Shown here: positions 9,950 to 46,790 of the stretch, piece by piece | Position numbering within the stretch: position 1 is the first letter of the stretch | Layout of the letters: each line of letters opens with the position of its first letter | NCBI GenBank assembly: GCA_964539455.1 | Contig: CAZIIP010000001.1 | Location: forward strand, 104,521 to 151,310 | Length of the DNA: 46,790 nt | Origin: an uncultured Rhodothermales bacterium | GTDB lineage: Bacteria > Bacteroidota > Rhodothermia > Rhodothermales > CAYLXM01 | Reading direction: 5' to 3' | Notes under the pieces: generated by a model | Databases searched by the model: none | Seen by the model: the letters and a program-made list of their open reading frames with translations, nothing else | What the model was told of the DNA's origin: nothing | Position numbers and translations under genes: made by a program

Positions 9950-9971
9950 TGAGGTAAAGAGAAGCTAAAAG

Positions 9972-10073
9972 TTTGTCGGACTTGAAAAATAGTCCCATTG
10001 TCTTTATTGAACTTAAGTGCAATTAGCGTCGTGGCAGATTTGTTGTAAATAAAGAACTTACGCCGCAATTCCG
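9972..10073. repeat. Intergenic 102-nt repeat, copy A
   Basis: Ungapped alignment to 30050-30151 gives 84/102 identical positions by my count, in the same orientation. The first 21 nt (TTTGTCGGACTTGAAAAATAG) are identical, and both copies share the palindromic core ACTTAAGT (10011-10018). Confidence 0.75.
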
Positions 10074-16777: not shown

Positions 16778-17071
16778 TGGATCGGTATGCCGACAAAGAA
16801 TACACAGTTATGTGAAGATCCGCGAACGAAAACGTTACACGCTTTCGTTGCAGAAACAGCGGTCCGCAGCTTGTTTGCTGCATTCACGAAAAAATGGTGC
16901 TCGAAGCATGGATCAACTTTGCAATCTAACATGTTTTACACATATTTTTCCGCTGGAATGTACTGGACGCGTACTCGGGGCTTGAATCTTCCGCCATCGG
17001 CCACCTGCCCTGTCAATCCCGCTATTCCGGATGCTCGCGACAAACGTTCACGCTAAGATTGGAGGTGCTGA

Positions 17072-17755
17072 ATGAATCCTTATGTCACGCAGGCACTATT
17101 TGATTTTCTGTCCGAACTAAAAGAAAACAACAACAGGGACTGGTTTAAGGCCAATAAAAGGCGGTACGAGCAGGACGTCAAGGATCCGCTGTTACAGTTC
17201 ACGGCTGACTTTGCGCCGGCTCTTGCAGAAATCAGCCCGGAGTTTCTGGCCATTCCGAAGGCAAGCGGTGGGTCGCTGTTCCGAATCTATCGCGACATCC
17301 GGTTTTCAAAGGACAAGACACCGTATAAAACCCATGCGGCGCTTCAGTTTCGTCACAGCTCCGGTAAAGATGCGCATGCCCCCGGATTCTACATTCACAT
17401 CGAACCGAATAATGTGTTTGTCGGCGGCGGGGTCTGGCGCCCTGACAGTAAGTCGCTGCGTTTAATACGCAACGCTATCGCGGAAAATCCGGATTCATGG
17501 GAAGAAATTCTATCTGCAGTGCCGTTCGCCTCGACCTTTAATCAGGCGGGAGACCGGCTGAAGCGGGCGCCAAAGGGGTTCGATCCGGAGCATCCGATGA
17601 TTGAAGAACTGAAGCGCAAGGATATTTTTGGCTATTCGAAACTGGACAAGGAGGAATATCTTGGGCCGGCGTTTCTGCCGGTGGTCGCCGAACGGCTGAA
17701 ACAGATGCGAGCGTACATGGAGTTTCTGACTACGAGCATCGGACAACCATTTTAG
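17072..17755 (+). CDS. TIGR02453/DUF2461 family protein
   Basis: 227 aa with the hallmark segments FLSELKENNNRDWFKANKRRYE and RIYRDIRFSKDKTPYKTH. Confidence 0.8.
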   Translation: MNPYVTQALFDFLSELKENNNRDWFKANKRRYEQDVKDPLLQFTADFAPALAEISPEFLAIPKASGGSLFRIYRDIRFSKDKTPYKTHAALQFRHSSGKDAHAPGFYIHIEPNNVFVGGGVWRPDSKSLRLIRNAIAENPDSWEEILSAVPFASTFNQAGDRLKRAPKGFDPEHPMIEELKRKDIFGYSKLDKEEYLGPAFLPVVAERLKQMRAYMEFLTTSIGQPF

Positions 17756-25166: not shown

Positions 25167-25583
25167 CTAGAGTTTGAGTGCATCTACAATAAATGCACTC
25201 GTGTTGTCGAAACCCGCCTGGAGTGATTTAATCTTAAGCTTCTTCTTCTGATCGGGCGTGAGATGCAACGTCAACCGAACAATTTCCTGACCCGTTGTTT
25301 TCAAATAACCGGTAGACGTCTTCTTGTGGCCCTTTGGCGTCCTCTTACGAGGCGTAGATCTCTTTTTGCCGGCCGGTCGTTTTTTGTCGCCCCCTATTGG
25401 TGGTTTTCCTTCGTTTCGCTCCTTTTGCTCTTTCATCGTCTCCGGAAGTGCTGTTTCACCGTCACCCGTCTCGTTTCCAACTGCATCGCCACCACCCGGG
25501 ACCCGACCGGATACAGGCACCATGGTACGACCGGTTGCGGCTTCCAGTGCTTCCCGTACGCTTGCTCGTCTTCTTTTAGCCAT
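25167..25583 (-). CDS. ParG-like ribbon-helix-helix centromere-binding protein with long basic disordered N-terminal tail
   Basis: 138 aa. The C-terminal VRLTLHLTPDQKKKLKIKSLQAGFDNTSAFIVDALKL has a beta-strand/helix/helix pattern. The N-terminal ~95 aa are Gly/Lys/Pro/Arg-rich. Its start overlaps the parA stop by 8 nt. Confidence 0.65.
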   Translation of the reverse strand: MAKRRRASVREALEAATGRTMVPVSGRVPGGGDAVGNETGDGETALPETMKEQKERNEGKPPIGGDKKRPAGKKRSTPRKRTPKGHKKTSTGYLKTTGQEIVRLTLHLTPDQKKKLKIKSLQAGFDNTSAFIVDALKL

Positions 25584-26382
25584 CTTTCTCTGCCAGCCTG
25601 ATTAGCTCTTCAGCGACCGCCTTGTAGTCGGCCGCACCGTTTCCGTCAGGATCATATTCCAAAATCGTCTCCCCCACCGCGGGTGCCTCTCGAAAACGAA
25701 TCGACTTCCTTACCGGATGCGTCACTCTGTCGCCGTATCGCCCCTCCAGCACGCTCATCACATCGCGTGTAATTAACGTTTGCGATTCGCACATAGTCGG
25801 CAATAGCGCCAGAATACCCGGAGCCAGCCCCCTTGATTGCAAGGCATCTACGGATTCCTGCAACCGACCAAGACCATCCACATCCAGCATGCCCATTGCT
25901 ACCGGCACCACGATCCCACCCTTCCATCCAAACGACTTTAATTCCGTTGCCAGAACGAATGCATTCAGTGCAAGCGCGCCGAGATTTGGCGGACAATCAA
26001 TAATGATCACGTCTCTCTCCAGTGCCAAAAACTCTTTACCCCTGTCACCCAATCGGTATAGCCCGCCACTTAGATCATTTGCAGCATCCCTCTCCGCCTC
26101 AGCCAAACGGGACGTAGAAGCCACAACTGTAATATTCTCCTTCCCTCTTCCTTGCAGCTCCTCTACTACCGATTCGACCCGCGCCTTCTTGTCCATGTAC
26201 AGGGCTGCCGTCCCTCCTTCGCGCACACCGTTCATCCCAAGACTCTTTCCGATATGACCCTGCGGATCGTTGTCCAGTAACAGCACGCGCCGGCCTTTCC
26301 TCGCAAGCGCAGCACCGATTGACACGCACGATGTCGTCTTGCCGACACCCCCTTTCTGATTGGCAAATACAAATACAAACAT
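25576..26382 (-). CDS. parA: ParA-family partition ATPase (small, type Ib-like)
   Basis: Deviant Walker A NQKGGVGKTT right after the internal start at 26382 (MFVFVFANQKGGVGKTT), and Walker B VIIIDCPP. I saw no N-terminal HTH domain. Confidence 0.9.
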   Translation of the reverse strand: MFVFVFANQKGGVGKTTSCVSIGAALARKGRRVLLLDNDPQGHIGKSLGMNGVREGGTAALYMDKKARVESVVEELQGRGKENITVVASTSRLAEAERDAANDLSGGLYRLGDRGKEFLALERDVIIIDCPPNLGALALNAFVLATELKSFGWKGGIVVPVAMGMLDVDGLGRLQESVDALQSRGLAPGILALLPTMCESQTLITRDVMSVLEGRYGDRVTHPVRKSIRFREAPAVGETILEYDPDGNGAADYKAVAEELIRLAEKDG

Positions 26383-26445
26383 GCCTTTTCTTTCGGTACA
26401 ACCTCCTCTATTAGGTGCACAGATACGATCGGTACTACCGCTATT

Positions 26446-26656
26446 TACCACCATACCGATTATACCACCTATACCGCATAATACGCAAATTGACGCTTAT
26501 CTCCTCTACCACTCATAACCTTACTATTCATTATACCACTCTTATACCTATAACTATATCTACCCATGATACACATATAACTACGATGGTTCATACGATT
26601 CATACTATGAATAATAGCTATACATACTGTATGATCGGTAGTAGTACCCATACCAC
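26446..26656. repeat. Centromere-like/operator repeat region upstream of parA
   Basis: TACCAC hexamer occurs 5 times in direct orientation (26446, 26463, 26507, 26533, 26651), along with multiple (T/C)ATACC units and short dyads (TTCATACTATGAA, CATACTGTATG). The plus strand is strongly G-poor: I count 6 G in the 130 nt 26441-26570. Confidence 0.55.
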
Positions 26657-27258
26657 TACGACCATTAGCACCGAATCTCAATATCACGTGATTGGTTCTC
26701 ATTTCCGATTTAACGGAAGCGACCCTTGACATGGGTGGGAGGCTGCCTTTATTGCTTGTCGTTTGTTAGATCGAATCTCATGCATCTCTGTGCCCTGTTG
26801 TTCGTTGACATTGTCGATTCGAAGCCACTCCGTTACTTCTACTTTCACGTGTCTATTTACCAGGCCGATGCAAGACGTCTACAGGCCTGGTATGCACACT
26901 AACACATTCATACATTTCTTTCAGTTTCGCGGTGACGAACCGAGCTTGAATGATCAATGCAATCGGCGTGTATCCGAATGGAAGAACGCAGCCGACAGAA
27001 CAATCAAAAATGTCGAATGCATTCGGACCGATAAAACTGAATGTATGGAAGGTTTCTGTATTTCCTTCTGAGTTCTGAGAGGGAGGTGCATCGTGGCATT
27101 TCCGTGGTATCATCATGCGGGGAGCATATCCTATACGGTGACGACCGTTTGCGTTCAAGGCGCGTACCAGGAGGGGATCAGCATTACAGCCGAAACAGAA
27201 AGGAGTAGCAAAACCGGTTGTTCAACAAGTGGAAAAGAAACGACGACGACGAATGAAG

Positions 27259-27842
27259 GAACAGATATGTGGGGTAGTGTTTGTGTTTTTGTTTAATCAT
27301 GTTTAAAACCGTTTGGCGATTTGGTACACATTAGAATTAATAGATTTGCATTGGGTAAAGGCATAACGGTTTGGGGTGGTGGGCAAGTGTTTGTGGGGTG
27401 AAAGGCATAGAAATATGGGAGCAAAAGCACGGGTATGTGGGGAAAAAGCAAGGAAATGTGGGGTGCTCGCTTTCTGGTGAGATTCTTTAAATGATGAAAG
27501 AAGCATAGAGATGTGGGTGAATGCCATGTCTGGTTGTGTATTAAAAGCATAGAGATATGGGTGACTAAGGAGGTGGCCAACACTTTGGGCATAGAAATAT
27601 GGGTCATGTGTGTGTTTCTTCATGTTATCTTCATAAACATAGGGATGTGGGGCAGGAATGATCAATTTTTGCGGTTGAAAGGTATAGGTGCGTGGGGATT
27701 GTGTGCATAAACGGCTTCTGTCTCCACATTGAAGCATAGATGCGTGGGGAATCGTTGATGTGATGGCATAGAAACGTGGGGAGCGCATTTCATTTCCGAG
27801 TACCGTGCTGCACCACAAACACAAAGGCATAGAGATGTGGGG
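27259..27842 (+). repeat. Iteron array (14 direct 16-mers, consensus GCATAGARATGTGGGG) = plasmid-type origin
   Basis: Copies start at 27259, 27361, 27383, 27405, 27427, 27448, 27503, 27547, 27589, 27637, 27682, 27734, 27766 and 27827, all in the same orientation. Start-to-start spacings are 22, 22, 22, 21, 55, 44, 42, 48, 45, 52, 32 and 61. The array ends 73 bp before the rep start. Confidence 0.85.
27278..27350. other. AT/T-rich stretch inside the iteron region (possible DNA unwinding element)
   Basis: GTGTTTGTGTTTTTGTTTAATCATGTTTAAAACCGTTTGG...ATTAGAATTAATAGATTTGCATT, lying between the first and second iterons. Confidence 0.35.
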
Positions 27843-27914
27843 TGTTACTCCTGTGCCTAACGGCATATATTCGCGGCGAGCCGATTGAAATGATTAACCC
27901 GCAATTATACGGGC

Positions 27915-29207
27915 ATGTCTCTGCTAGTCGAGAACAGGCGCGAGCTTAAGAAGCACGTCGGTGCGGTGCACACGCATGGAAAGCTGACGTTGCTTCAACG
28001 AAAGGTGGCGAATATTCTTATTCTCAATGCTTACAATGAATTACCTACAAAGGATGAGTACCAGATAAGGATCAGGGATCTGGCAGAGATCGCGGGATTC
28101 GACAGCAAGAACATCAAGGTACTCAAGGATTCTTTGCGTGGACTCATGCGCATTGTTATAGAGTGGAATGTACTTGATGAGGCAGGAAAGGAGGAGTGGG
28201 GTGCCAGTCCTATGCTTGCCCAGGCGGTTATAAAGAAGGGCAGTTCACATTTCACCTATTCGATAAGTCCTGTGCTCAGACGGAGGTTATACTCCCCAGA
28301 AATCTATGCCCGAATCAACCTGAGCATCCAGCGACGATTCAGAAGCGGTTATGCGCTGGCACTGTATGAGAACTGTGTTCGTTTTCGCAATGTGGGTACT
28401 ACCGGATGGATAGATCTTGAGACGTGGAGGAAACTGCTCGGCGTAGAAGCCGAGCAATACGCAGCATTCAAGTCGTTTTCGCAGTGGGTGTTAAAGCCGG
28501 CCATCAAGGAGGTCAGCAAGCACTCCGATATCAAGGTTACGGTCGAATACAGGCGTAGGAAGCGCCGTGTGGTGGCCATGCGCTTTAAAATCTTGGACAA
28601 TCCGGCATTCGACGGGATTGATCGGAATGCTCTGCCGATCGCACAGAAGAAGAAGAAAGGCAACGGATCGGCCACGCTGGACATGTTTCAGCAGAGCAAT
28701 CCGCTTGCCCGCCGGCTTGGTACGTTTGGCTTGTCTGCCGTCCAGGTCAAGAGTGTGCTGGACGAGCACGATGAGTCGTACGTAAAGGAGAAACTTGATT
28801 TTGTGGAAAGCGAACTCAAGTCGGGAAGACTCATCAGGAACGTGCCGGGATTTACGCTAAAGGCGCTTGAAAAGGATTACCGGCCTCGGCAGGGCAATGT
28901 CTCGGTTGGAAAGAAAATCAAGGAAGGAGATGGTCGGGCGGCCCTCGACGCCAAGCGAATGAAACGGGCGGAGGAACGGTCACAAAGGCTGGAAGCGTTA
29001 TATGCCGGATTATCCGAGTGGGAGCGATCGAGAGTAGATGAGCGCGTGATCGCCAGGCTGCGCGAGGAAATCGGCGGTGTGGCCTGGAATGCCTATCGCA
29101 GAGCGAGTGAGGCAGGGGAGGGGGAGGATCAGATGCCTGTGATCGTCAGGGGCACTTTGCGCAGTCTCAGACTGGAAGTGGTCGAGCAAATGGAGACGGC
29201 GGTTTAA
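27915..29207 (+). CDS. Replication initiator protein (Rep_3/RepB-like, iteron-binding)
   Basis: 430 aa. The N-terminal two winged-helix-like segments are typical of Rep_3 initiators (LTLLQRKVANILILNAY...IRIRDLAEIAGF...LKDSLRGLM; FKSFSQWVLKPAIKEVSKHSDIKVTVEYRRRKRRVVAMRFKI). It sits immediately downstream of the iterons. Confidence 0.8.
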   Translation: MSLLVENRRELKKHVGAVHTHGKLTLLQRKVANILILNAYNELPTKDEYQIRIRDLAEIAGFDSKNIKVLKDSLRGLMRIVIEWNVLDEAGKEEWGASPMLAQAVIKKGSSHFTYSISPVLRRRLYSPEIYARINLSIQRRFRSGYALALYENCVRFRNVGTTGWIDLETWRKLLGVEAEQYAAFKSFSQWVLKPAIKEVSKHSDIKVTVEYRRRKRRVVAMRFKILDNPAFDGIDRNALPIAQKKKKGNGSATLDMFQQSNPLARRLGTFGLSAVQVKSVLDEHDESYVKEKLDFVESELKSGRLIRNVPGFTLKALEKDYRPRQGNVSVGKKIKEGDGRAALDAKRMKRAEERSQRLEALYAGLSEWERSRVDERVIARLREEIGGVAWNAYRRASEAGEGEDQMPVIVRGTLRSLRLEVVEQMETAV

Positions 29208-30011: not shown

Positions 30012-30049
30012 GGCGGATAACGGCATATGCAGGTATTGACTTCTGGTGG

Positions 30050-30151
30050 TTTGTCGGACTTGAAAAATAGGCCCACTGTTATTATTACACTTAAGTGCGA
30101 TTACCGTAGTGACAGATAGGTTGTAAATAACAAACTTATGCCGAAAGCCCG
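30050..30151. repeat. Intergenic 102-nt repeat, copy B
   Basis: 84/102 identical to 9972-10073 without gaps. Palindrome CACTTAAGTG at 30088-30097. It fills the gap between the ggt stop (30160) and the CBM9-like start (30011). Confidence 0.75.
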
Positions 30152-33183: not shown

Positions 33184-34416
33184 TCACCAGTCGACGACGG
33201 AGCCGTCGTAGGCATCGTAGGTTTCGGGATTGCGCCAGTCGTGACCGATCTTGTCGGCAAGTGCTTCCTCGTCCAGTTCGATTCCCAGGCCGGGTGCCGT
33301 TGGAAGCGGGATATAGCCGTTTTCCACGGTGAAGGGTGTTTTTAGATAGCCCTCTCCAAGAGAAACCTGTTCTTGGCACAGAAAGTTGGGGATGGAAGCG
33401 GCCAGTTGGATACCGGAGGCAAGGGAGATGGGGCCCATTGGATTATGGGGGGCAATCGCGGCGTAGTAGGCCTCGGCCATACCTGCAATGAGGCGCACCT
33501 CGGTCAGACCGCCTGCGTGGCACAGGTCGGGCTGAAGAATGCCGGCCGCGCCTTTTTCCAGCACCTCTCGAAACCCCCATTTGGTGAACAGGCGTTCACC
33601 GGTAGCGATCGGTATATGGGTGCTTCGCGCTATATCGGCGAGCACGTCCACGTTTTCCGGGGCAACGGGTTCTTCGACGAAGAGCGGGTGATATGGCTCC
33701 AGGCCCTTGATGAGGACCTTGGCGGTTTGGGGGGAGATTTCACCATGGAAGTCGATCCCGATGTCATTTTCGGGACCTATCGTATCCCGCAATTCGGCAA
33801 ATGCGGCGACGGCATGGTCGACGAAAGCCTTGCTTTCCACGATTCGGGCCGGTTTCTCCATGGCGACACCGGTCTTGAAGGTGGTGAACCCCTCCGAGAT
33901 CGCCTGTCGTATCGCCCCGGGTGTTCGTGCATGTGCATACACCCGGATTCGGTCGCGTGTCGGTCCGCCGAACAGCTCATACACCGGGACACCCAGGGCT
34001 TTTCCCTTGATGTCCCATAACGCCTGGTCGATTCCGCTAAGGGCGCTCGTGAGAATGGGTCCGCCCTTGTAGAATGCATGCCGGTAGATGGCCTGCCAGT
34101 GGTGCACAACCCGGCGCGGGTCTTTGCCTGTGAGATAGGGTGCGATTTCTTCGATAGCCGTAGCAATGGTATGGGCCCGGCCTTCCAGCAGCGGCTCTCC
34201 GAGTCCGACGATGCCGGCATCGGTATGGACTTTCAGGAAAATCCACCGCGGTTTAACCAGGAAGGTCTCGAGACGCGTGATGCGCAGGGATTCCCGTGGA
34301 GCGATCGGCGGGTATCTCCGATTCGCCGGTTCTCCAGCGACGGTACGGGGAGCGAGGCCCGCAAGCGCAGCGGCCTGGGCGGTTTTCTTGAGTAATGAGC
34401 GACGGTTGATAGACAT
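33184..34416 (-). CDS. Enolase-superfamily dehydratase (D-galactonate dehydratase-like) with twin-arginine signal peptide
   Basis: MSINRRSLLKKTAQAAALAGLAPRTVAG (Tat-type) after the internal start at 34416. MR/MLE-family body (ITRLETFLVKPRWIFLKVHTDAGIVGLGE..., GIDQALWDIKGKALGVPVYELFGG). Confidence 0.8.
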   Translation of the reverse strand: MSINRRSLLKKTAQAAALAGLAPRTVAGEPANRRYPPIAPRESLRITRLETFLVKPRWIFLKVHTDAGIVGLGEPLLEGRAHTIATAIEEIAPYLTGKDPRRVVHHWQAIYRHAFYKGGPILTSALSGIDQALWDIKGKALGVPVYELFGGPTRDRIRVYAHARTPGAIRQAISEGFTTFKTGVAMEKPARIVESKAFVDHAVAAFAELRDTIGPENDIGIDFHGEISPQTAKVLIKGLEPYHPLFVEEPVAPENVDVLADIARSTHIPIATGERLFTKWGFREVLEKGAAGILQPDLCHAGGLTEVRLIAGMAEAYYAAIAPHNPMGPISLASGIQLAASIPNFLCQEQVSLGEGYLKTPFTVENGYIPLPTAPGLGIELDEEALADKIGHDWRNPETYDAYDGSVVDW

Positions 34417-34615
34417 GTTGTGCGGCTTGTTGCGTGAAGGAGTCGGGGGCGGCGAACAACGCGTCGGGTCCGGCCCGGTACATGATAATGCTTTCGGACG
34501 AGCCGGCAAGCCGGATTTGCCGATGCCTCCGATTTACCGCCTGACCTGAACACGCATGGAGCAGGGGAGAGAGTATGCAACAGTCAAAGAGAATCTATTG
34601 GAACACAATCAGGCA

Positions 34616-34649
34616 ACACATATATTAAACACATGTGTGAAATATGTGT
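34616..34649 (+). promoter_or_regulatory. Composite operator candidate upstream of imuB
   Basis: ACACAT at 34616 and 34629, and ATGTGT at 34633 and 34644 (11-bp period). The central pair forms the palindrome ACACATGTGT and the outer arms ACACATAT/ATATGTGT are complementary. Positions 34633-34647 are identical to 43505-43519. Confidence 0.6.
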
Positions 34650-34664
34650 ATCGCCTGGTTTAAT

Positions 34665-35795
34665 ATGATTGCCTGTCTTCACATAAGGGATTATCCGGCA
34701 TGGGTCATGCGGTATCGTTATCCGGATGCTGCGCTTGCGGTATTTCACCGGGGGCGTATTCTGGCCAGGAATCGGAAGGCACGGCGGAAGGTGCAAGTGG
34801 GAGAGTTGGTCGAGCGTGCACGTTCGGCGCATCCGGAGGTGCAGTTTCTGGGGCGGGACACGCATGAGGAGGAGATTCGCTGGGAGTATGTACTCGAGAA
34901 GATCAACCGGTATACGCCGCTGGTTGAATCTGCAGTGCCCGGCACGGCCTATTTCCAGCCGCTTGAGGGTCGGGTGCCGGCGCCGCCGGCACGGGAGTTG
35001 TCGGTGCGGGTTGGTGCCGGACCGTCTCGTGCAGTGGCCCGCATTGCGGCCGCCCGTACCCACGACGGGCATTTTCTCGAGATCGCCCCGCGAGGCGTGC
35101 GAACGTTTTTGCGGGCATCGCCCGTTTCGACACTCTGTGACCTGGGATTTCCGGAAGAGATGGTCGAGCGGCTGACCCTTTTCGGGCTGGACAATCTGGA
35201 GCGTATCAGGCAACTGACGCGACGACATCTGACTGCCCAGTTCGGTGCGGATGGTGAGGCGCTGCATGATTTACTGGATTTGCAGAAGACCGACCCGCCC
35301 ATTGCCGTCTACCGCCCGTCTCCAGCGATTTTATGTTTTGTGGATTTCGAGAACGACGTCATCGAGCCGGCGGATATTCTTCCCGCCCTGCAGCATCTGG
35401 TAAGTGAGGCGAGGGACGCGCTCGAGGGACTGGTGACCTCCCGCATCACCCTCGAAACAACGGGCAAAAGCGAAGGGGCAAACCGGATATGCTCGGCAGT
35501 ACTTAAATCCGGCACCTCCGATGCGGGGATCCTCTTTCGCGCGGCGGAACGAAGGCTGAAGAAAAACTGGCCACAGGCGGCGATTTCCCGGATTCGTCTC
35601 ATTCTGGGTGCACTGGGTTATGCCAGGCACCACCAGGGCGCCCTGTTCTTCCAGCGGCCGGACGTCCAGACGGCTGTTCGCCGTGTCCACCGCCGGTATC
35701 CCAATGCTCTGCTGCGTGTCGTGCCGGCAGAGCGGCGGTTGCCGCTCGAGGAGGCCGACGGGTTGTCGTTTGTGCCATACCGCTCCGCCTCATGA
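34665..35795 (+). CDS. imuB: ImuB-like Y-family polymerase homolog (catalytically inactive type)
   Basis: Start MIACLHIRDYPAW (34665; the ORF opens at 34644). Y-family-like fold without the DMDAFF acidic motif seen in dinB. It is followed by dnaE2 in the same orientation. Confidence 0.75.
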   Translation: MIACLHIRDYPAWVMRYRYPDAALAVFHRGRILARNRKARRKVQVGELVERARSAHPEVQFLGRDTHEEEIRWEYVLEKINRYTPLVESAVPGTAYFQPLEGRVPAPPARELSVRVGAGPSRAVARIAAARTHDGHFLEIAPRGVRTFLRASPVSTLCDLGFPEEMVERLTLFGLDNLERIRQLTRRHLTAQFGADGEALHDLLDLQKTDPPIAVYRPSPAILCFVDFENDVIEPADILPALQHLVSEARDALEGLVTSRITLETTGKSEGANRICSAVLKSGTSDAGILFRAAERRLKKNWPQAAISRIRLILGALGYARHHQGALFFQRPDVQTAVRRVHRRYPNALLRVVPAERRLPLEEADGLSFVPYRSAS

Positions 35796-36025
35796 AACGC
35801 ATTGATGAACCGATACGGGTACAGACGAGCGGCAAACGCATCGAAGCCGTCTACTGGCACGGCCGCCGCATTGCGGTGCACGAGCAGACGAATGCGTGGA
35901 TTGTCCGCAGCCGGTGGTGGGGAAGTGAAGAGAAACGGATTTATCGGACGCTGCAGACGGATAAAGGCCATATGGAGGTGTACCAGGTCGGTGATTTGTG
36001 GCGATTGAGCCGCCTGGCGGATTAA
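35792..36025 (+). CDS. Small Trp/Arg-rich protein embedded between imuB and dnaE2
   Basis: 77 aa. Its ATG overlaps the imuB stop (ATGA at 35792-35795) and its stop lies 2 nt before the dnaE2 ATG (36028). Sequence: IEAVYWHGRRIAVHEQTNAWIVRSRWWGSEEKRIYRTLQTDKGHMEVYQV. Confidence 0.6.
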   Translation: MKRIDEPIRVQTSGKRIEAVYWHGRRIAVHEQTNAWIVRSRWWGSEEKRIYRTLQTDKGHMEVYQVGDLWRLSRLAD

Positions 36026-36027
36026 AA

Positions 36028-39000
36028 ATGTTCACTCATCTACACGTACGAAGCTGGTTTTCGTTTTTGCGGGGTGCGTCGCCTCCCGACCAACTGGTCG
36101 AGCAGGCCGCCGCCCTGGGGATGCGTGCGCTGGCGATTACCGATATCAAGGGCATGTACGGCGTGGTGCGCCACCAGCTTGCGTGCAAGGAGCATGGACT
36201 GAAGCCGGTATTCGGCGCCGAGGTGGTGGTCGGGGGTCGGCCCCTCGTACTGCTGGCAAAAACGCGGACAGGGTATGCAAACATTTGCCGCCTTTTAACC
36301 CAGGGATTTCAGCGGACGGAGACGCCCGAGTCGGACGTACGGGTTGAAGAACTGGCTGCGGTGGGCGAGGACGTTATCTGTTTGACGGGAGGTGCGGAAG
36401 GGCTGCTGTGGGATGCGGTGCATCGCAAGGCGTATCCGAAGGCACGAAACTGGGTCGATCATCTGCGGGGAATTTTCGGTCGAAACCTGTACGTTGAGCT
36501 GACGAACCAGCTTCGTCCGGACGACCGGCGGATGGTTACGCGCATGGCGCGCTTTGCGTCCGAGTGCCGTCTGCAGGTGGTGGCGACGGGAGATGTCCGC
36601 TATGCCACACCGGAAGGGTATGCCCTCTATGATCTGATGACGTGTATTCGCACCCACCAGACAATCTTTGAGGGCCATCCGGAGCGTCCGGTAAACGACC
36701 AGGCCTTTTTGCGTCCCGAGGCGGAGCTTCGCCGGTTGATTCCGCATCCTGAAGCGTTTCGCAACGCGGAGCGGATCGAAGCATCCTGCTGCGTGGATCT
36801 CTTGCCCGAGTACATCACCCCACCCGGGGCACGCCTGCCGGCGGGCGTTTTGCCCGAGACACATTTGCGAAAACTGTGCGACGAGGGGTTAAAGACCCGC
36901 TACGCAGCCGGGGAGCGCAAACGGGCACGGGCGCAGATGGAAAGAGAGTTGAAAGTGATCTGCGGACTGGAATTGGAGGAGTTCTTTTTGGTCGTTCGCG
37001 AAGTGGTAGATGAGGCCGCCAGAAGAAACATCCGGTGTGCCGGTCGGGGATCGGCCGCCAACAGCATCGTGGCCTATCTGCTGGGCATCACCCATGTCGA
37101 TCCGATTGCTCACCGGCTTCTCTTCGAGCGCTTTCTGCATCAGGGACGAAAAGGGACGCCGGATATCGACATCGATTTCGATTCGGACCGGCGCCTGGAG
37201 ATCGTCGAGTGGATAGAGGACCGGTTCGGCGTCGAGCAGACGGCCATGTCGGCGACGCTGCAGACCTACCAGTTGCGGTCCGCCCTTCGGGATGTCGCAA
37301 AAGCCCTGGGTTATCCGGAGCAGGTGCTGCGGGCCTTCAGTACAGCTGTGCCGCATCGGCCCGCTACCCGGATCGACGAATACAGGGAGCAGGTCATCAG
37401 CATTCTCGGTGGAGAAACCCCGCTGGCCAGGGCGCTGGTCGAAGGTGTGTGGGCACTCGCCGGATGTCCACGGCACCTCGGACAGCACTCGGGGGGCATG
37501 GTGCTGTCACGCGCACACCTCCATGCGTTTACACCGGTGCAGACCTCGGCGAACGGTGTAAAGATGGTCCAGTTTGACAAACGCGACATCGAGCGGCTGG
37601 GACTGGTCAAACTCGATGTGCTGGGACTTCGTATGCTGGCGGCACTGAGCTTCGCCGAGGAGTTGATCCAGCGCACCCATCCCGAGCCGTTTAATCTCGA
37701 TAAGGTACCGCTGGACGACCGGCCGACGTTCGATATGATCCGGGCAGGGGAGACGATCGGGCTGTTTCAGATCGAATCACAGGGCCAGTTGCATTTGCTG
37801 GCGATGAACCAGCCCGAGACGTTTCAGGATTTGATCGCGGAGATCGCGCTGTTTCGTCCGGGGCCCGTTCAGGGCGGCATGGTTCGTCCCTTCGTGCGGA
37901 GAAGAAAAGGGCAGGAGCGGGTGCAGTTTCAGGATCCGTCGCTGGAACCGATTCTGAAGGACACCTATGGGATTATCCTGTTTCAGGAACAGGTGCTGGA
38001 GGTCGCTCACAAATTCGCCGGCATGAGCCTGCAGGAAGCGGACGATTTCAGGGCGCTGATGTCGAAGTTTCGGGATCCGGGTCAAATGGAATCGATGCGC
38101 ACGGTGTTCGTCAACGGCGCCATGCGGCGCGGTGTATCGGAGAAGGTAGCCCAGGAAGTGTTCGAAAAGGTCTCGAAGTTCGTCGGCTACGGCTTTTGCC
38201 GAAGCCATGCCGCAGCATTCGCCAAAACCGTCTTCCAGTCCGCTTATCTGAAGAAGCACTTTCCTGCCGCCTACATGGCGGCGGTTATGCAGCACATGCC
38301 CGGCATGTATCCGGTCATGACCCTCGAACAGGAGGCAAAACGGCTGGGTGTGCAGGTGTTGTCGCCCGACGTCAACCACAGCGGGATCCTGTATGATCTA
38401 GAGCACCGGGGATATGGCGTGTATGCGATTCGCAAGCCGCTGACGTCGATCAAGGCGGTTTCATTGGAATCGGCGCGGACCATCTTTTTGGAGCGCCTGA
38501 AGGGGCCGTTCAAAGATGTCGAGGACTTTTACCGGCGCTGTGCGGTGGACAAGGATGCCATGGAAAACATCGCCCGGTCGGGTGCGCTGGACGAACTGAC
38601 ACACGGCAGCAGGAAGGCGCTCTGGGAAGTGGGCGTTCTGCACCGAAGACTGGGCACAGCCGGCCGAATAGATCCGCAACAGCACCTTTTCAGCATGCAG
38701 GCACTAGAAGCGGTCGATCTGCCTGCGCTGGCGGAGCTGGGAATCGACGAGCGGCTGAGCTGGGACTATCAGACGCATGGTGCGGCGCGACATCATCCCA
38801 TGACCGTTGTCCGGCGCCAGCTGAATGAACTGGAAGTCCGTCCGGTCAGCGTCTGTTACCAGTACGCACAACCCGCACTGCGTGGCAAGGCGCCCGTGAT
38901 CCAGACGGCCGGCATCGTCATCCTGCGCCAGCGACCGCCGACGGCAAAGGGATTCATGTTCATCACCCTGGAAGACGAGACGGGTTTTATTCAGTGTGTC

Positions 39001-39216
39001 GTCAATCCGCAGGCACAGGATCTTTACGGTCACATGCTCAACAGCGCCGCCCTGATCGTTCAGGGCGAACTGCAGTCCGAGAAAAACTGGCGCGGCATCA
39101 TCCTGCAGCAGGCCTGGCGACTGGATGCCGTTTTTGGCGGATACAAAGGACATGCAAGCTACAGTGGCGGTAGAGACAGGCACGTTGTGTCGACTGCCGA
39201 CGCAGTCAATTCATGA
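36028..39216 (+). CDS. dnaE2: Error-prone DNA polymerase III alpha homolog DnaE2 (ImuC)
   Basis: About 1062 aa from MFTHLHVRSWFSFLRGAS (PHP domain). Pol III alpha core motifs and an OB-fold C-terminus. It lies in a cassette with imuB. Confidence 0.92.
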   Translation: MFTHLHVRSWFSFLRGASPPDQLVEQAAALGMRALAITDIKGMYGVVRHQLACKEHGLKPVFGAEVVVGGRPLVLLAKTRTGYANICRLLTQGFQRTETPESDVRVEELAAVGEDVICLTGGAEGLLWDAVHRKAYPKARNWVDHLRGIFGRNLYVELTNQLRPDDRRMVTRMARFASECRLQVVATGDVRYATPEGYALYDLMTCIRTHQTIFEGHPERPVNDQAFLRPEAELRRLIPHPEAFRNAERIEASCCVDLLPEYITPPGARLPAGVLPETHLRKLCDEGLKTRYAAGERKRARAQMERELKVICGLELEEFFLVVREVVDEAARRNIRCAGRGSAANSIVAYLLGITHVDPIAHRLLFERFLHQGRKGTPDIDIDFDSDRRLEIVEWIEDRFGVEQTAMSATLQTYQLRSALRDVAKALGYPEQVLRAFSTAVPHRPATRIDEYREQVISILGGETPLARALVEGVWALAGCPRHLGQHSGGMVLSRAHLHAFTPVQTSANGVKMVQFDKRDIERLGLVKLDVLGLRMLAALSFAEELIQRTHPEPFNLDKVPLDDRPTFDMIRAGETIGLFQIESQGQLHLLAMNQPETFQDLIAEIALFRPGPVQGGMVRPFVRRRKGQERVQFQDPSLEPILKDTYGIILFQEQVLEVAHKFAGMSLQEADDFRALMSKFRDPGQMESMRTVFVNGAMRRGVSEKVAQEVFEKVSKFVGYGFCRSHAAAFAKTVFQSAYLKKHFPAAYMAAVMQHMPGMYPVMTLEQEAKRLGVQVLSPDVNHSGILYDLEHRGYGVYAIRKPLTSIKAVSLESARTIFLERLKGPFKDVEDFYRRCAVDKDAMENIARSGALDELTHGSRKALWEVGVLHRRLGTAGRIDPQQHLFSMQALEAVDLPALAELGIDERLSWDYQTHGAARHHPMTVVRRQLNELEVRPVSVCYQYAQPALRGKAPVIQTAGIVILRQRPPTAKGFMFITLEDETGFIQCVVNPQAQDLYGHMLNSAALIVQGELQSEKNWRGIILQQAWRLDAVFGGYKGHASYSGGRDRHVVSTADAVNS

Positions 39217-39516
39217 ACCATGAATTGAACCCGCACTACCCGCTTCAACGATCGACTCACCCGCAACCACAAAGATCTTGTCTCCCGGCGCAGGGGTGAA
39301 GCGTCTGTTTCCGGTAAACGTTCCGAAAGCGGGGAAAATGGCGCGCCGCTCTCCCATCACGAAACAGGGGAGACGAAGACGCTGCTGCGCGCCTCCGGAG
39401 AATGAGATGCCGGCGTGGATATGACCGGAGATGACGTAGCCCGGTGGGAGATTGTCTGTATCAACAGCCGAACACTGCCTTTTCTGAAAAGTGCCGCGTT
39501 GCTCACTGTACGTCAT
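39211..39516 (-). pseudogene. C-terminal remnant of a PdeM-like (ligase-associated) metallophosphoesterase
   Basis: SGHIHAGISFSGGAQQRLRLPCFVMGERRAIFPAFGTFTGN matches my recollection of the C-terminal part of PdeM-type phosphoesterases. The N-terminal metal-binding motifs (DxH, GDxxH, GNHD) are absent. The only ATG (39516) overlaps the last codons of the Prim-Pol gene. Confidence 0.4.
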
Positions 39517-41014
39517 TTCCGGGGAAAAGCGGCATCTGGTCCTCCGATGTTGAAGCGCCCTCCCCGTCCGGTTCACTTCCGGATGTAAGGGCGGAGCCCT
39601 GTGCATCCTGAAACAGGCCGGGCTGATCGAAGCGGTATTCGAATCCGTGCCGTTGCAGTACGATCAATGATTTTCGCGGAGTCTCATCAAACCGGCTCTT
39701 GGTCAGCAGTACGCGTTCCCGCGTATGGTCACCAACCTGCTCCAGATGCACCTTAATGTCGACAAATGGATCGAGGGGTGTATCCGGAATGCGCCCTTGT
39801 GAGGTATTGTCGGAAGGGAGATCCCACACGGCAAAGAGGCCGACGCCTCGCAAAATGGCTTTCAGCAGAGGCTGCATGACGTAGTCCGCATCTACCTGCC
39901 GGGAGCCGTCCATCACCTCGCGTCCGGCGAAAGCATTCAGCCGGTCGATAACAATCAGGCGTGCCTTTACGGTAGTGCAGCGATCCACTGCGGCCGCGAT
40001 CAGCTTTGGCCAGGACACATCCAGTGACTCCTGATAGTGAAGCACGTGAAGCCTGTTGAGAAACAGATGGTTGTAGCCGCGGGCCAGAATGGCCCTGCCC
40101 AGGGACGCCGGCGATTCCGACGTGAGAAGCACGACACTTCCCTGAACGGATCTGCGCGTCAGGAATTCGGAGCCCTCCAGCACTGAGCGGATGAGATGAA
40201 GCGCGAAGGTGGTTCTCCCGCTGCCTTTTTCCGTTCCGTGCAGCAAGGTAATTGCCTGGGTAGCCGCCCAGGGTTCATTGATCCATATGCTCGAATTGTC
40301 CGCCGCCACGTCGAATCCCGTGCGGAACGGCAAATCCGGCATTTCCTCGCCCATTTCTGTCTGGGCTTTGTTCTCCGTGCGGGTACGAACGCGCAAATTG
40401 CATCTTCGGAGAATCCATCCGGGGACGGGCGCAACGGAGGTCTGCCGGATGGTCGCACCTGGGTCCCACGAGCTCTCTTCCCAGCGATCCCCGTACAGGT
40501 GAACGGACGGTGGTGCGAAAACCACTTCTCCTTCTCCCAGAAGCGTAATGCCGGGTGCGATAGGTGTCGAACCGGCCGGCATTGCTGATGGATCGGCCGA
40601 AAACAGGTGGACAAGCCGGTCGGAGGACGCCAGGATGGTTGGCGTCTTCGGAAGCATCCCGTGCATGATCTCGAGTTCGTTGGCGCTCGCCAAACCGTCT
40701 CGTCCGTCTATCAGCAGCGCGACCAGGCGTGCATCGGCGCCCAGCGCCATACCAATGCGTGCATGGGGGTGGGTTTGCCACCAGCGCTCTATGTGATCGC
40801 GGTTGGAGGTGGCCCTGTCGATTCCAAAGTATTGACAGCGTGTGGAGGGCTGCCGGCAGTCGGCATTCGAGAGTTCACAAATGCATTCTCCGGCACGTCT
40901 CCTGCCTCTGCGGACGGACGGCAGCGGCAGGACAGGATATCCGAGTTCCGCAATTTCCAGTGCCGCCCGTCTCAGTCGCTCTCCAACTCTGTCGGTTCGT
41001 CCGTTTTCAGCCAT
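39503..41014 (-). CDS. Bifunctional Prim-Pol (archaeo-eukaryotic primase-like) / RecA-like AAA_25 ATPase fusion
   Basis: 503 aa. The N-terminal Prim-Pol-like region has ELGYPVLPLP, ERWW, IGMALG, LLIDGRDG, LVHLF and VVFAPPSVH. The C-terminal P-loop domain has LLHGTEKGSGRTTFALHLI and Walker B RLIVIDRLNAF. Confidence 0.75.
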   Translation of the reverse strand: MAENGRTDRVGERLRRAALEIAELGYPVLPLPSVRRGRRRAGECICELSNADCRQPSTRCQYFGIDRATSNRDHIERWWQTHPHARIGMALGADARLVALLIDGRDGLASANELEIMHGMLPKTPTILASSDRLVHLFSADPSAMPAGSTPIAPGITLLGEGEVVFAPPSVHLYGDRWEESSWDPGATIRQTSVAPVPGWILRRCNLRVRTRTENKAQTEMGEEMPDLPFRTGFDVAADNSSIWINEPWAATQAITLLHGTEKGSGRTTFALHLIRSVLEGSEFLTRRSVQGSVVLLTSESPASLGRAILARGYNHLFLNRLHVLHYQESLDVSWPKLIAAAVDRCTTVKARLIVIDRLNAFAGREVMDGSRQVDADYVMQPLLKAILRGVGLFAVWDLPSDNTSQGRIPDTPLDPFVDIKVHLEQVGDHTRERVLLTKSRFDETPRKSLIVLQRHGFEYRFDQPGLFQDAQGSALTSGSEPDGEGASTSEDQMPLFPGNDVQ

Positions 41015-43176: not shown

Positions 43177-43234
43177 TATCTATTTCGGCGTTCAGATTAG
43201 AAACTCTGGTCGATTCGAGGCAACCTAAATCTGA

Positions 43235-43404
43235 GACTAGTTGTTCACAGAACCACTAGTCCGTCAACAGGCTTATCCACGACCCGCCCAACAGGTTAAA
43301 TTGCCATGTTTCGGTAGCGTTAAAGGAATGTTGCCGAAACGTAACCAACCGGTGCAATACCATAAGAGTTTGATAATATGTCTTTTAACAGTATGCTATC
43401 CACA
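43235..43404. promoter_or_regulatory. DnaA-box cluster / dnaA promoter or oriC-like region
   Basis: TTATCCACG (43273-43281) and CTATCCACA (43396-43404) each have one mismatch to TTATCCACA. TTGTTCACA (43241-43249) lies in the loop of the hairpin GACTAGT/ACTAGTC (43235-43261). A second hairpin, GTTTCGG...CCGAAAC, spans about 43308-43340. An AT-rich stretch covers 43361-43395. Confidence 0.45.
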
Positions 43405-43504
43405 ACTTCCACAGTGTTGACAACGGAGATACCCACGTACAGGGGTTTCCCAACAATTTGTAAACACTCCCCCGGCCCCGAGCGTTAAGAGTGTCTTTTT
43501 CAAT

Positions 43505-43519
43505 ATGTGTGAAATATGT
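43505..43519 (+). promoter_or_regulatory. Operator candidate upstream of dinB (15-mer identical to the imuB site)
   Basis: ATGTGTGAAATATGT ends 12 nt before the dinB ATG. The identical 15-mer ends 17 nt before the imuB ATG, in the same orientation relative to the gene. Confidence 0.6.
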
Positions 43520-43530
43520 AATTTGACGAC

Positions 43531-44586
43531 ATGGAGCGCCGCATCATCCATGTTGACATGGACGCATTCTTCGCGTCCGTCGAGCAAAGGGACCGGGGTC
43601 TTCGGGGCAGCCCGGTGGCGGTCGGAGGTGTGCGGGGCAGGGGAGTGGTCGCGGCGGCGAGTTATGAGGCGCGTGTGTTTGGAATTCATTCGGCGATGTC
43701 GATGCGGGAGGCTCTTCGTAGCTGCCCGGATCTGATTGTCGTACCCACGCGGCATGAGCACTATCGCGAAGAGTCGGAGCGGATTCGGGCGATCATGCAC
43801 ACGTTCACCGATGTTGTTCAACCACTCTCTATTGACGAGGCGTATCTGGATGTGACCGGTTGTCTTGATGCGTATGGCACCGCGACCGAAGTGGCGATCA
43901 ATCTCAAACGCCGCATACGCGAGGAGACCGATCTGACGGCGTCGGCCGGGGTAGGTCCTAACAAAACGGCGGCCAAGATTGCCTCGGCGTATCGTAAGCC
44001 GGACGGATTGACGGTTGTGCATCCCTCGAGGCTCGAGGAGTTCTATGCGCAGTTGGATATCGAGAAATTCCCGGGAATCGGCGCTGCCACGGCCAAGCGG
44101 ATGCATGCATTGAGCATCCGGACGGGTGCGGATCTCAGAAAGCAGTCGCGTGTCCTTTTAAGACAGAAATTCGGGAAATCGGGAGAGTGGTTTTACCGGA
44201 TGATTCGAGGAGATGACGATCGTCCCGTCTCGGTCAACCGAAAGCGGAAATCCGTGTCGGTGGAGCGAACCTATTTCGACGGACTACGAACGCGCGAAGC
44301 GGTAGAGGAAGCCTTGGCCTCGATCGCCGGACGGGTCATCCGCCGACTGAAGAAAGCGGGCGTCACGGGACGAACGGTAGTGTTGAAGGTCCGTTTTTCG
44401 GACTTCAGCCAGTTTACACGCAGTCTAACGCTGGACCATGCGTGCAACGGAACCGATGAATTGATCCGTGTGGTGATGCACCTGGCCCGCCAAATCGACA
44501 ATGGGCGTCCCGTCAGGCTCCTTGGCGTAGGAGTCTCCAACCTTGTGCCCTCCGATGTGGCACAGACGGAATTATCGCTCGAATGA
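43531..44586 (+). CDS. dinB: DNA polymerase IV
   Basis: 351 aa. IIHVDMDAFFASVEQRD and SIDEAYLDVT catalytic motifs, with a little-finger domain. Confidence 0.95.
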   Translation: MERRIIHVDMDAFFASVEQRDRGLRGSPVAVGGVRGRGVVAAASYEARVFGIHSAMSMREALRSCPDLIVVPTRHEHYREESERIRAIMHTFTDVVQPLSIDEAYLDVTGCLDAYGTATEVAINLKRRIREETDLTASAGVGPNKTAAKIASAYRKPDGLTVVHPSRLEEFYAQLDIEKFPGIGAATAKRMHALSIRTGADLRKQSRVLLRQKFGKSGEWFYRMIRGDDDRPVSVNRKRKSVSVERTYFDGLRTREAVEEALASIAGRVIRRLKKAGVTGRTVVLKVRFSDFSQFTRSLTLDHACNGTDELIRVVMHLARQIDNGRPVRLLGVGVSNLVPSDVAQTELSLE

Positions 44587-44610: not shown

Positions 44611-45636
44611 CTACAACAAGCCTTTTCGCTCGGCTACATCGAAAAACCGTCTGGCAATTTCCGCCGTCAATGCCGGTGCATTTCCCCAGGCGCGGTTGTT
44701 GACCAGTATGTTCAACACCTGACCGGCTTCGATGGCTTTGAATATCAGTGCATTTGAATCGTCGATCATGCGGTTGGCCGATGCATGGTCGACCAGTTCG
44801 GGGGCCGGTTTGTCGAACGGATGGGCATGCGCGTAGGCCCTGGCATACGGCATACGCAAGGGGGTAAGCAGCCGCACCACACCTTGTCCATCCGTTGCAG
44901 GGAATCCCTCAACGTGTTCCCATTGGCGTTTCAGCGGCGGGAGCCAGGTCCAGTGGCTGTAAACGAAGCCGAGTCCACGATCTTTTAACCACGCAACATA
45001 TTCCGGCGTGATGAGGTGAGGAGATCGTAGTTCAAGATGCATCTGCGGGCTGTCCGGTAGTTGCCTGAAAAAGGAGTCCAGCGTGGCGATGTTTTCCTCG
45101 TTGGAGGGGCTGTCGGATTTTCGCTGATATTCCTGCTCGAATATTACACCGGCCAGGCGATTTCCCAGGATATCCCGGCAAGGCTTGAGGAAGCGCTCGA
45201 TGAAACCATCGAAATGCAGATACGAGTCGTTTTCTTCGTAGCTCTGTGTCGTACGAATTCTGCGTGCGGCATAGGCCTGTGGGGCCTTTAGAAAAAAGCG
45301 GGCGGAGTCCGGACTGTGTTCGGCGTATCGCCGGAGAACGAAATAGTTATTGGTCGGCTCGCCTTCACGGTTCAGGAGCGTGCGGTAGAAGGTGAAGTCG
45401 ATTTCCAGGCAACCAAAGTGTTCGAAGTAATCGGCGACGGACGTGACGGGGACCGTTTCTTCACGGTACGACTTGCCGCCCAGTTTCCTTGATCTCGAAT
45501 TGATTTTATAAGTGTTTTCCGGATAGATTTGGCCGATCCAGCCGGCATATCTGTCGCTTGTGGTGCCAAACCGGAGGCAAGGATGGACATGGCGAAAATC
45601 GTATTTCTCCAGGTCGGGCATGGTGCGCCTTTTCAC
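44611..45636 (-). CDS. DUF72 (YecE-like, TIM-barrel) family protein
   Basis: 341 aa. The segments LRFGTTSDRYAGWIGQIYP and FEHFGCLEIDFTFY are typical of DUF72. Its ATG directly abuts the lexA-like stop codon (45637-45639). Confidence 0.7.
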   Translation of the reverse strand: MKRRTMPDLEKYDFRHVHPCLRFGTTSDRYAGWIGQIYPENTYKINSRSRKLGGKSYREETVPVTSVADYFEHFGCLEIDFTFYRTLLNREGEPTNNYFVLRRYAEHSPDSARFFLKAPQAYAARRIRTTQSYEENDSYLHFDGFIERFLKPCRDILGNRLAGVIFEQEYQRKSDSPSNEENIATLDSFFRQLPDSPQMHLELRSPHLITPEYVAWLKDRGLGFVYSHWTWLPPLKRQWEHVEGFPATDGQGVVRLLTPLRMPYARAYAHAHPFDKPAPELVDHASANRMIDDSNALIFKAIEAGQVLNILVNNRAWGNAPALTAEIARRFFDVAERKGLL

Positions 45637-46269
45637 TTAACGAATGGCGCGAATGACGGCCCTAACCATGCCGACGACCTCGAGATCCTTACTCTGATCG
45701 GCAAGCTCGATGCGGTAGCCGGGCTGATCGGCCGTGAGTCGAATCAGGTTGTTGGATCGTACAAGTCGGCGTACGATCATCATACCGCTTGTAAGTGCGA
45801 CGGCAATGGCATTGCCGGGAATTTTCGCAAGCTGCCGTTCTTCCGTGACAACGAGATCACCCGACCGGATGCCGGCGGTTCCCATGCCGTCATCACCCGC
45901 AACGACGACCAGGCAATTGTCGGCATCTACGCGTCCCAGGATCGAGCGATCGATCGCCAGCACACCGGAGGCGCCGGCCCGCAGTCCGGCGCGGTCGAGT
46001 CCGGCTGCAGAAGAAACAAACGGAAGATGTGCCGGGAGTTCGTGGGCATGCTCGCTTTCGATCAGATGGATAGAACGCGCTCTGCCCTTCTGCCTGCGAA
46101 GGTATCCCTTTCGCTGCATCGCATCCAGTTGTTTGACCACGCCGTTGGTCGAGCTAATACCGACGGCCGCACCAATCTCTTTTACGGACGGCGCACAGCC
46201 GTGCGCATGGACAAATCCGCTGATCGCATCAAATATCTCCTGTTGCCTGTCTGTAAGCGGAACGCGCAT
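45637..46269 (-). CDS. lexA: LexA-family repressor homolog with substituted Ser/Lys catalytic dyad
   Basis: 210 aa from MRVPLTDRQQEIFDAI (ATG 46269). LexA winged-helix N-domain (APSVKEIGAAVGISSTNGVVKQLDAMQRKGYLRR) and an Ala-Gly site (SSAAGL). The S24 domain reads VAGDDGMGTAGIRSGDLVV and MIVRRL where canonical LexA has GDSM/GMSM and VKRL. I checked both segments against the DNA. Confidence 0.8.
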   Translation of the reverse strand: MRVPLTDRQQEIFDAISGFVHAHGCAPSVKEIGAAVGISSTNGVVKQLDAMQRKGYLRRQKGRARSIHLIESEHAHELPAHLPFVSSAAGLDRAGLRAGASGVLAIDRSILGRVDADNCLVVVAGDDGMGTAGIRSGDLVVTEERQLAKIPGNAIAVALTSGMMIVRRLVRSNNLIRLTADQPGYRIELADQSKDLEVVGMVRAVIRAIR

Positions 46270-46477
46270 GGAATGAATCAGGAAAACCGCACGGAAGGCG
46301 GATTGGTCGACACAAAAACATACCGGATTCGCCGTCGCAATGCCACCCGGAACGTCGCGGTAGAATCCCGGTGTGAAAAGAAAATTCCGGTTGATCGCGA
46401 TCCCGGTAATACGGACTTTGCATCTACTCCGGCACGCCGGTATCGATCCGGTACAATTGCAGCCAGCAGGACCGACC

Positions 46478-46790
46478 ATGTCGCTTATTCTACCCTTCAA
46501 GTCGAAAAAACTGGCCCGCGTCAAGACGAGCAGACGCCAGAAGCTCGAAGAATACGGACAGTTGAATCTGTTTGCCGGCGCGCCTGCAAAAGTCTATCAA
46601 CTGCCCTCCCATCTGCCCGCTTTCCTAACGGCGACCCTGCTGCATGAAAGGGGTGCTCCGGGTGCCCATGCTGCGTACGAACGAGCCATCCAGGAAGGAG
46701 ACCACGTAGACGACGCCTATGTAAATCTCGGCGTAATGGCCTATGAAGCCGATCGCGTCGATGAGGCCTTCACGTGTTTTCGTGAATGCC
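46478..46790 (+). CDS. TPR-like protein, 5' partial (runs off the window)
   Basis: Reading frame open from ATG 46478 to the window end (104 codons). It contains a TPR-like segment, AYVNLGVMAYEADRVDEAFTCFRE, and is divergent from lexA. It is not in the supplied ORF track because it has no stop in the window. Confidence 0.5.
   Translation, partial: MSLILPFKSKKLARVKTSRRQKLEEYGQLNLFAGAPAKVYQLPSHLPAFLTATLLHERGAPGAHAAYERAIQEGDHVDDAYVNLGVMAYEADRVDEAFTCFREC

Follow-up and report, generated by a model that had tools for sequence, protein, structure and literature searches.

Two translesion-polymerase operons in the stretch of DNA analysed here (46,790 nucleotides, hereafter the window) carry at their promoters a shared 15-mer that probably forms the core of an SOS operator of LexA type, one of the class found in Balneolaeota, a sister lineage. 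The 15-mer, ATGTGTGAAATATGT, occurs in the window in two exact copies, both on the plus strand: at 34633-34647, upstream of imuB (ATG at 34665, 17 nt from the 15-mer), and at 43505-43519, upstream of dinB (ATG at 43531, 11 nt from the 15-mer). The preliminary description had reported this exact repeat and its common orientation at the two genes, and a search of the window confirmed both. The dinB and imuB copies differ from the first base beyond the 15-mer on either side; imperfect copies occur at 16929-16943 (minus strand, two mismatches) and 34620-34634 (minus strand, three mismatches). As far as sequence can tell, membership of the Balneolaeota class agrees with the architecture of the boxes, their matrix scores, the genes they precede, their place on the promoters and their conservation, and we infer that a LexA protein would bind the boxes and repress both operons, with induction by damage. 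The earlier proposal of a shared operator of a damage regulon is upheld as regards the apparently operator-like character of the site (its match to the Balneolaeota box and its conservation at both genes), but not as regards the regulator that was proposed. The operator class is already known; what is new is its occurrence in a poorly sampled uncultured lineage.

Repetition of a 15-mer is in itself common in a window of this kind, and this is what speaks for the reading that two AT-rich promoter regions share the sequence by coincidence: for 46.8 kb, with both strands counted, the expectation is about two repeated 15-mers, about nine pairs are seen, and at least one occurs in 96.5% of first-order Markov simulations. 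The chance expectation first given for the repeat, far below 0.001, was more than a thousandfold too low when the whole window is considered. The non-random part is the position of the copies: both lie within 30 nt of the start codons of two translesion-polymerase operons, functionally linked genes, and in the same orientation, for which a rough expectation is 1e-6. Coincidence is further opposed by the additional degenerate copies in the window (TATGT-N6-TATGT with at most one mismatch has five matches against 0.82 expected, a number reached in 1 of 100 shuffles, and four of the five are the two imuB boxes, the dinB box and the site at 16925-16944, all described below) and by the retention of the box in relatives with 55-72% protein identity while the adjoining intergenic sequence diverges. 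We consider coincidence effectively refuted by the conservation and matrix results, and hardly credible as an explanation of the repeat.

The Balneolaeota LexA box is a direct repeat with the consensus TTACACATATTTTWTACATA (Kilic et al., 2020, BMC Genomics 21 Suppl 5:466, PMC7739468). It was discovered through sites upstream of lexA genes, that is, through autoregulation. Its validation came from EMSA with Balneola vulgaris LexA, combined with mutagenesis in which either repeat or the length of the spacer was altered, the EMSA support being limited to B. vulgaris and R. halophilus promoters (PMC7739468). The reverse complement of the 15-mer, ACATATTTCACACAT, reads ACATA-N6-ACAT(A/G), repeated directly with a period of 11 bp around a T-rich spacer, the half-sites being ACATA-TTTCAC-ACATA at dinB and ACATA-TTTCAC-ACATG at imuB; on the coding strand the boxes read (C/T)ATGT-N6-TATGT. 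The original reading of the motif as a tandem ATGT-N7-ATGT with an 11-bp period was correct, and it corresponds to the validated Balneolaeota direct-repeat box. A weight matrix built from ten published Balneolaeota lexA-promoter sites only, with which both strands of the window were scanned, gave as its four best independent matches 34632-34651 (17.7 bits), 34614-34633 (17.1 bits), 16925-16944 (13.5 bits) and 43504-43523 (12.9 bits), all weaker than the training sites, which score 22-30 bits. Among 100 Markov simulations, matches of at least 12.5 bits numbered 0.69 on average and three at most, and none had four. Three of the four sites sit on translesion-polymerase promoters.

Two of these sites belong to imuB. 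Box 2, ATACACATATTTCACACATG (34632-34651, minus strand), is the top matrix match, contains the 15-mer and agrees with the Balneolaeota consensus at 16 of 20 positions; box 1, CAACACATATATTAAACACA (34614-34633, plus strand), is the second-best match and fits TATGT-N6-TATGT with one mismatch. The two lie head-to-head, in opposite orientation, with a 2-bp overlap. A sigma-70-like promoter for imuB-dnaE2 (34598-34626, plus strand; TTGGAA, 17 nt, TATATT; one found against 0.4 expected) has its -10 hexamer overlapped by box 1, and box 2, which starts 6 nt past the -10, accordingly spans roughly +1 to +20. The imuB-like gene (34665-35795, plus strand) encodes a divergent Y-family protein with weak IMS and IMS_C matches and lies directly upstream of dnaE2. 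It is followed by a 77-aa ORF (35792-36025, plus strand), which overlaps the imuB stop, is called in locus L166 and in the relatives L168-L170 and has a weak, sub-threshold match to DUF6504 (E = 0.004), and then by the dnaE2-type polymerase gene (36028-39216, plus strand), with PHP, DNA_pol3_alpha and related Pfam domains, for whose product the best NCBIfam family is 'error-prone DNA polymerase' (900 bits, below the cutoff of 939). An ImuB-like Y-family protein followed by a DnaE2-type polymerase is the order of the imuA-imuB-dnaE2 cassette, here with the 77-aa ORF in between; neither imuA nor imuA' is present upstream of imuB, where the neighbour is a divergent enolase-superfamily gene (33184-34509). 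Inside the latter gene, at 33584-33599 and about 1.07 kb upstream of imuB, lies a perfect palindrome, GTGAAC-AGGC-GTTCAC (GTGAACAGGCGTTCAC), of the kind predicted to be the operator of the degenerate LexA family discussed below, with an expectation of about 0.003 per window for its 12 specified bases.

The imuB box recurs in relatives. ImuB homologues with 55-56% identity have the same operon layout, and three of the loci (L167-L169) carry TTACACATATGATATACATA at the same place, with 18 of 20 positions of the Balneolaeota consensus and 22.1 bits. In these relatives 13-14 nt separate the box from the ATG, and on its other side a promoter-like TTGACT-18-TATACT ends 7-8 nt away from it; the TTGGAA-17-TATATT of the window has the same geometry. 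Pattern-based scans of 185,579 species genomes returned no ImuB relatives, nor did single-protein scans of metagenomic contigs; those described here were found through a protein database, on short metagenomic contigs.

At dinB there is a single box, AATTACATATTTCACACATA (43504-43523, minus strand), which contains the 15-mer, is the fourth independent matrix match and agrees with the Balneolaeota consensus at 14 of 20 positions, including all core positions. Its score of 12.9 bits reflects good half-sites and poor flanks, the 5' TT(A/G)C flank being weaker than in the Balneolaeota box. The box ends about 8-12 nt before the ATG, the start codon has no Shine-Dalgarno sequence, and a consensus scan found no sigma-70-like promoter beside the box; on our own reading, the dinB transcript would be leaderless, with TAATTT as the -10 hexamer. 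The gene (43531-44586, plus strand) encodes DNA polymerase IV, with Pfam domains IMS, IMS_C and IMS_HHH and 411 bits to NCBIfam NF002677 against a cutoff of 256. The gene identities on which the initial proposal was built hold for dinB, through this Pol IV equivalog, and for imuB, through its weak Y-family matches and the dnaE2 gene next to it.

A relative with a 72%-identical DinB and the same divergent dnaA/dinB layout (L162, L163) keeps the box as CAATATGTGcGAtATATGTAATTT, and both differences from the dinB box of the window fall in the spacer. Since the box is kept at both dinB and imuB in relatives in which the adjoining sequence has diverged, the same operator geometry has been retained. 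Two Rhodothermales dinB promoters that we examined (L171, L172) have neither an ACATA direct-repeat box nor a palindrome-type box; a further contig, that of P0018, looks proteobacterial and was uninformative. In B. vulgaris, the box of the probe that bears the locus tag 06965 extends over the ATG, with the TATGT-reading strand as the coding strand (PMC7739468). The coding sequence that follows this ATG, ...RKIIHID, can be read as the N-terminus of Pol IV, and the dinB box of the window matches the 06965 box in orientation and in proximity to the ATG. The dnaA/dinB intergenic region (43177-43530) also contains DnaA-box-like sites, TTATCCACG at 43273 and CTATCCACA at 43396, and shares several conserved blocks with that of the relative L162. 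After dnaA comes no dnaN; a small ORF and then a Prim-Pol/AAA_25 gene (39503-41014) take its place.

The remaining matrix site, TCTAACATGTTTTACACATA (16925-16944, plus strand; 13.5 bits, a two-mismatch match of the 15-mer), is intergenic, between a DUF2652/SRPBCC gene (15704-16777, minus strand) and a TIGR02453/DUF2461 gene (17072-17755, plus strand). To our knowledge neither is a member of the SOS regulon. No link of DUF2461, DUF2652 or DUF72 to LexA was found in the literature searched, and a consensus scan found no sigma-70-like promoter beside the site. That this third site adjoins non-repair genes is one reason to weigh the alternative that the boxes merely resemble a LexA box and serve some other transcription factor, or form a promoter element peculiar to the lineage, such as one used by an alternative sigma factor. 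Binding of the boxes by LexA is here predicted from sequence, and, because the boxes overlap core promoter positions, part of their conservation could be that of promoter sequence. We give this alternative very little credence: the match extends to the two half-sites, their 11-bp spacing and the T-rich spacer between them, the sites were recovered by a matrix trained on the validated sites of another lineage, the other three of the four sites lie on translesion-polymerase promoters, and imuB has a separate -35/-10 pair besides the box.

Two further repeat-bearing features of the window may be recorded. A plasmid-type replicon module of low GC content (47% against 56%) occupies 25576-29207, between polA and a gamma-glutamyltranspeptidase gene; it encodes ParA (25576-26454, minus strand) and a Rep3 initiator (27915-29207, plus strand) and contains repeats related to GGCATAGAAATATGGG, which form two exact pairs, at 27404, 27503, 27588 and 27827. 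Far apart from each other, at 9971-9992 and 30049-30070, stand two identical 22-nt copies of GTTTGTCGGACTTGAAAAATAG in direct orientation, each just 3' of a long ORF.

On the preferred reading of the boxes as LexA-type operators, a dimeric repressor bound to them would occlude the core promoter and the transcription start. At imuB-dnaE2 it would do so through the head-to-head pair, of which box 1 covers the -10 hexamer and box 2 about +1 to +20, and at dinB through the one box, which ends about 10 nt before a start codon that lacks a Shine-Dalgarno sequence. In that case the two error-prone polymerase operons would be silent as long as no DNA damage inactivates the repressor; Pol IV and the ImuB-DnaE2 cassette are typical members of SOS regulons. 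The 47-kb window contains no recA, uvrA or canonical lexA. The most likely repressor would be a Balneolaeota-type LexA encoded outside the window, rather than the degenerate LexA-like gene within it, and the rest of the 151-kb contig may contain a canonical lexA. Against the LexA reading count the lack of a box at the only LexA homologue in view, the two Rhodothermales dinB promoters without one, a closest GyrA among those sampled that is of Rhodothermales and not of Balneolales, the low score of the dinB site and the neighbours of the third site.

The preliminary description had named as possible binder an atypical LexA encoded 2 kb from dinB, an attribution that we find unsupported. This LexA-like gene (45637-46269, minus strand) lies about 1 kb from the end of dinB and is the only LexA-family gene in view. 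Its product has both an N-terminal LexA winged-helix domain (PF01726, LexA_DNA_bind, 2.4e-20) and a C-terminal S24 fold (PF00717, Peptidase_S24, 1.8e-9), and it scores 104.0 bits to TIGR00498, below the cutoff of 110.95 for the LexA equivalog. The S24 site is degenerate: in E. coli numbering, Ser119 is replaced by Gly (GDDGM for GDSM) and Lys156 by Arg (IVRRL; VRR for VKR), both replacements are also present in the clade members P0002-P0004, and the Ala-Gly cleavage site is not conserved, the aligned positions reading AAG, AGG, GGG and TDG in the four clade members. With the catalytic Ser and Lys replaced and the cleavage site unconserved, the protein should be unable to respond to RecA by self-cleavage. 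The Balneolaeota motif was discovered through autoregulation, and no ACATA box is found upstream of this gene, the only LexA homologue in view (best matrix score 5.2 bits in 46250-46500), nor upstream of the lexA-like gene in the relatives L164 and L165; between the lexA-like and TPR genes, a comparison of the window with these two relatives found no conserved motif.

The gene is apparently in one operon with a DUF72 gene (44611-45636), which lies immediately downstream, and the upstream context is conserved in its clade: first a divergent TPR gene, followed by one for a YgjP-like (PF01863) metallopeptidase (46270-46790 of the window; positions 1-2248 of L166). A relative, on the contig of P0002, shares these upstream genes, with a gene that lacks annotation where the window has DUF72. 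Pattern-based scans of the 185,579 species genomes yielded no relatives of the clade above 36% identity.

An exhaustive HMMER search placed the LexA-like protein in a larger family with the same substitutions. Ser to Gly and Lys to Arg are found together in about 43 of the best 150 cluster representatives and dominate the top 30, giving a family signature of (G/A)DDGM plus Arg for the catalytic Lys; a Rubricoccaceae MAG is among the members. Of 53 metagenomic loci of the family (L134 and L173-L200 among the family's loci), 30 were examined for upstream palindromes, and in about 26 of these 30 two GGTGAA-N6-TTCACC palindromes lie upstream of the gene, 31-55 bp apart. The palindromes are 53-141 nt before the start in most loci and further upstream in three. 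They look like classic LexA-type autoregulation through a Cheo-box-like motif and not a direct repeat. In the window GTGAA-N6-TTCAC is not enriched, and its sole perfect copy is inside a coding region.

Other elements accompany the degenerate lexA genes. Many of them (L180-L199) are preceded by one GCACA(CA)TAT element, which in about half lies 22-50 nt from the start; relative to the flanks its enrichment is 27-fold, and it is nearly always on the gene strand. Further upstream than this element is a ATGTGCACAT palindrome, and both contain the half-site of the Balneolaeota LexA box. Where neighbours are annotated (L134, L177, L184), the gene is divergent from mraZ-rsmH-ftsL; the GTGGG-type repeats at these loci we take to be MraZ boxes.

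These findings bear on the possibility that the boxes of the window are bound by the LexA-like protein itself, acting as SOS regulator of the lineage despite its lack of self-cleavage. Besides the position of the gene near dinB, what favours this possibility is that the clade of the protein is found in the same lineage as the dinB relatives with a box, even in the same sample (ERZ27256776: L163 and L165), and that the half-site in the GCACA(CA)TAT element and the ATGTGCACAT palindrome of degenerate-family promoter regions means that the same half-site travels with the family. Weighing against it are the replaced catalytic residues and unconserved cleavage site and the lack of a box upstream of the gene itself. 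The paired palindromes of the related loci also point to a different, Cheo-box-like specificity, and the recognition-helix region of the window protein, SSTNGVVKQL, resembles that of palindrome-bearing relatives (STNGVFKLL, SANAVVKHL). Given the degenerate residues, the promoter without a box and the family palindromes, we judge this gene an unlikely regulator of the boxes. A narrower version, in which the dead LexA-like protein represses at the ACATA-N6-ACATA boxes, is inactivated other than by self-cleavage and represents one specialised branch of the degenerate family, strikes us as a shade more doubtful still. If it were true, the lineage would control its mutagenic polymerases with a LexA unable to self-cleave, and the divergent TPR and YgjP-like metallopeptidase genes would be candidate inactivators, by analogy with IrrE/DdrO, a protease/repressor pair.

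The preferred reading, a Balneolaeota-class operator served by a LexA encoded outside the window, would extend the direct-repeat Balneolaeota box to an uncultured, higher-GC lineage without a close genome representative, and the matrix and the four anchor sites could be used to reconstruct the SOS regulon of this lineage from a full genome. It would also be an instance of the usual convergent outcome, in which error-prone polymerases are under tight SOS-type control though the operator sequence changes. The degenerate LexA family, of which we found no description in the literature searched, is a more novel lead than the operator: a family that lacks the Ser-Lys dyad yet has a conserved pair of promoter palindromes suggests a LexA-derived regulator that does not use RecA-stimulated self-cleavage.

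Several known systems can be set beside those of the window. In the FCB group, SOS networks centre on dinB/umuC, dnaE2 and imuA-imuB-dnaE2, and the non-canonical LexA operators of Bacteroidetes, GGA-N5-TCC and CTAA-N5-TTAG, are palindromes bound by CI-like S24 repressors (PMC8565304). We rejected these two motifs as candidates for the boxes described here, since they are palindromes of different sequence and neither occurs here; the window shows no enrichment of the Cheo-box GAAC-N4-GTTC, which is absent from its promoters. For the LexA-like gene, a precedent is the LexA-related protein of Synechocystis sp. PCC 6803, which is non-cleavable, its catalytic and cleavage residues being changed. 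Lineage and substitutions differ: unlike the Synechocystis protein, the family of the window protein has (G/A)DDGM and Arg, and its operator would be the paired GTGAA-N6-TTCAC palindrome. The Synechocystis protein is described as a LexA homologue that is not an SOS regulator (PMC1524924, PMC4759255).

Direct-repeat boxes offer a closer comparison. The LexA box of Alphaproteobacteria and Acidobacteria, GTTC-N7-GTTC, is likewise a direct repeat with an 11-bp period and not a palindrome, but its half-site is unrelated (GTTC against ACATA) and the phyla are others; recognition of direct repeats by LexA arose several times (PMC7739468). The host of the window boxes differs from the described Balneolaeota in being uncultured, with a GC content of 56%, and in a GyrA nearest, among those sampled, to Rhodothermales rather than to a described Balneolales genome: in a pattern-limited search that compared no Balneolales sequence, the best match was Roseithermus (Rhodothermales) at 68%, with other Bacteroidota at 54-59%. 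GyrA places the organism in the FCB group. The gene content differs as well, with an imuB/77-aa ORF/dnaE2 cassette here rather than umuDC and no box-bearing lexA seen in the window. The operators agree in several respects: the Balneolaeota box, like those of the window, consists of (C/T)ACA(T/C)A half-sites repeated directly every 11 bp and separated by a T-rich spacer, it occurs on the promoters of Pol IV and other translesion polymerases, often with more than one box per promoter, and at dinB it abuts the ATG with TATGT on the coding strand, as it does here.
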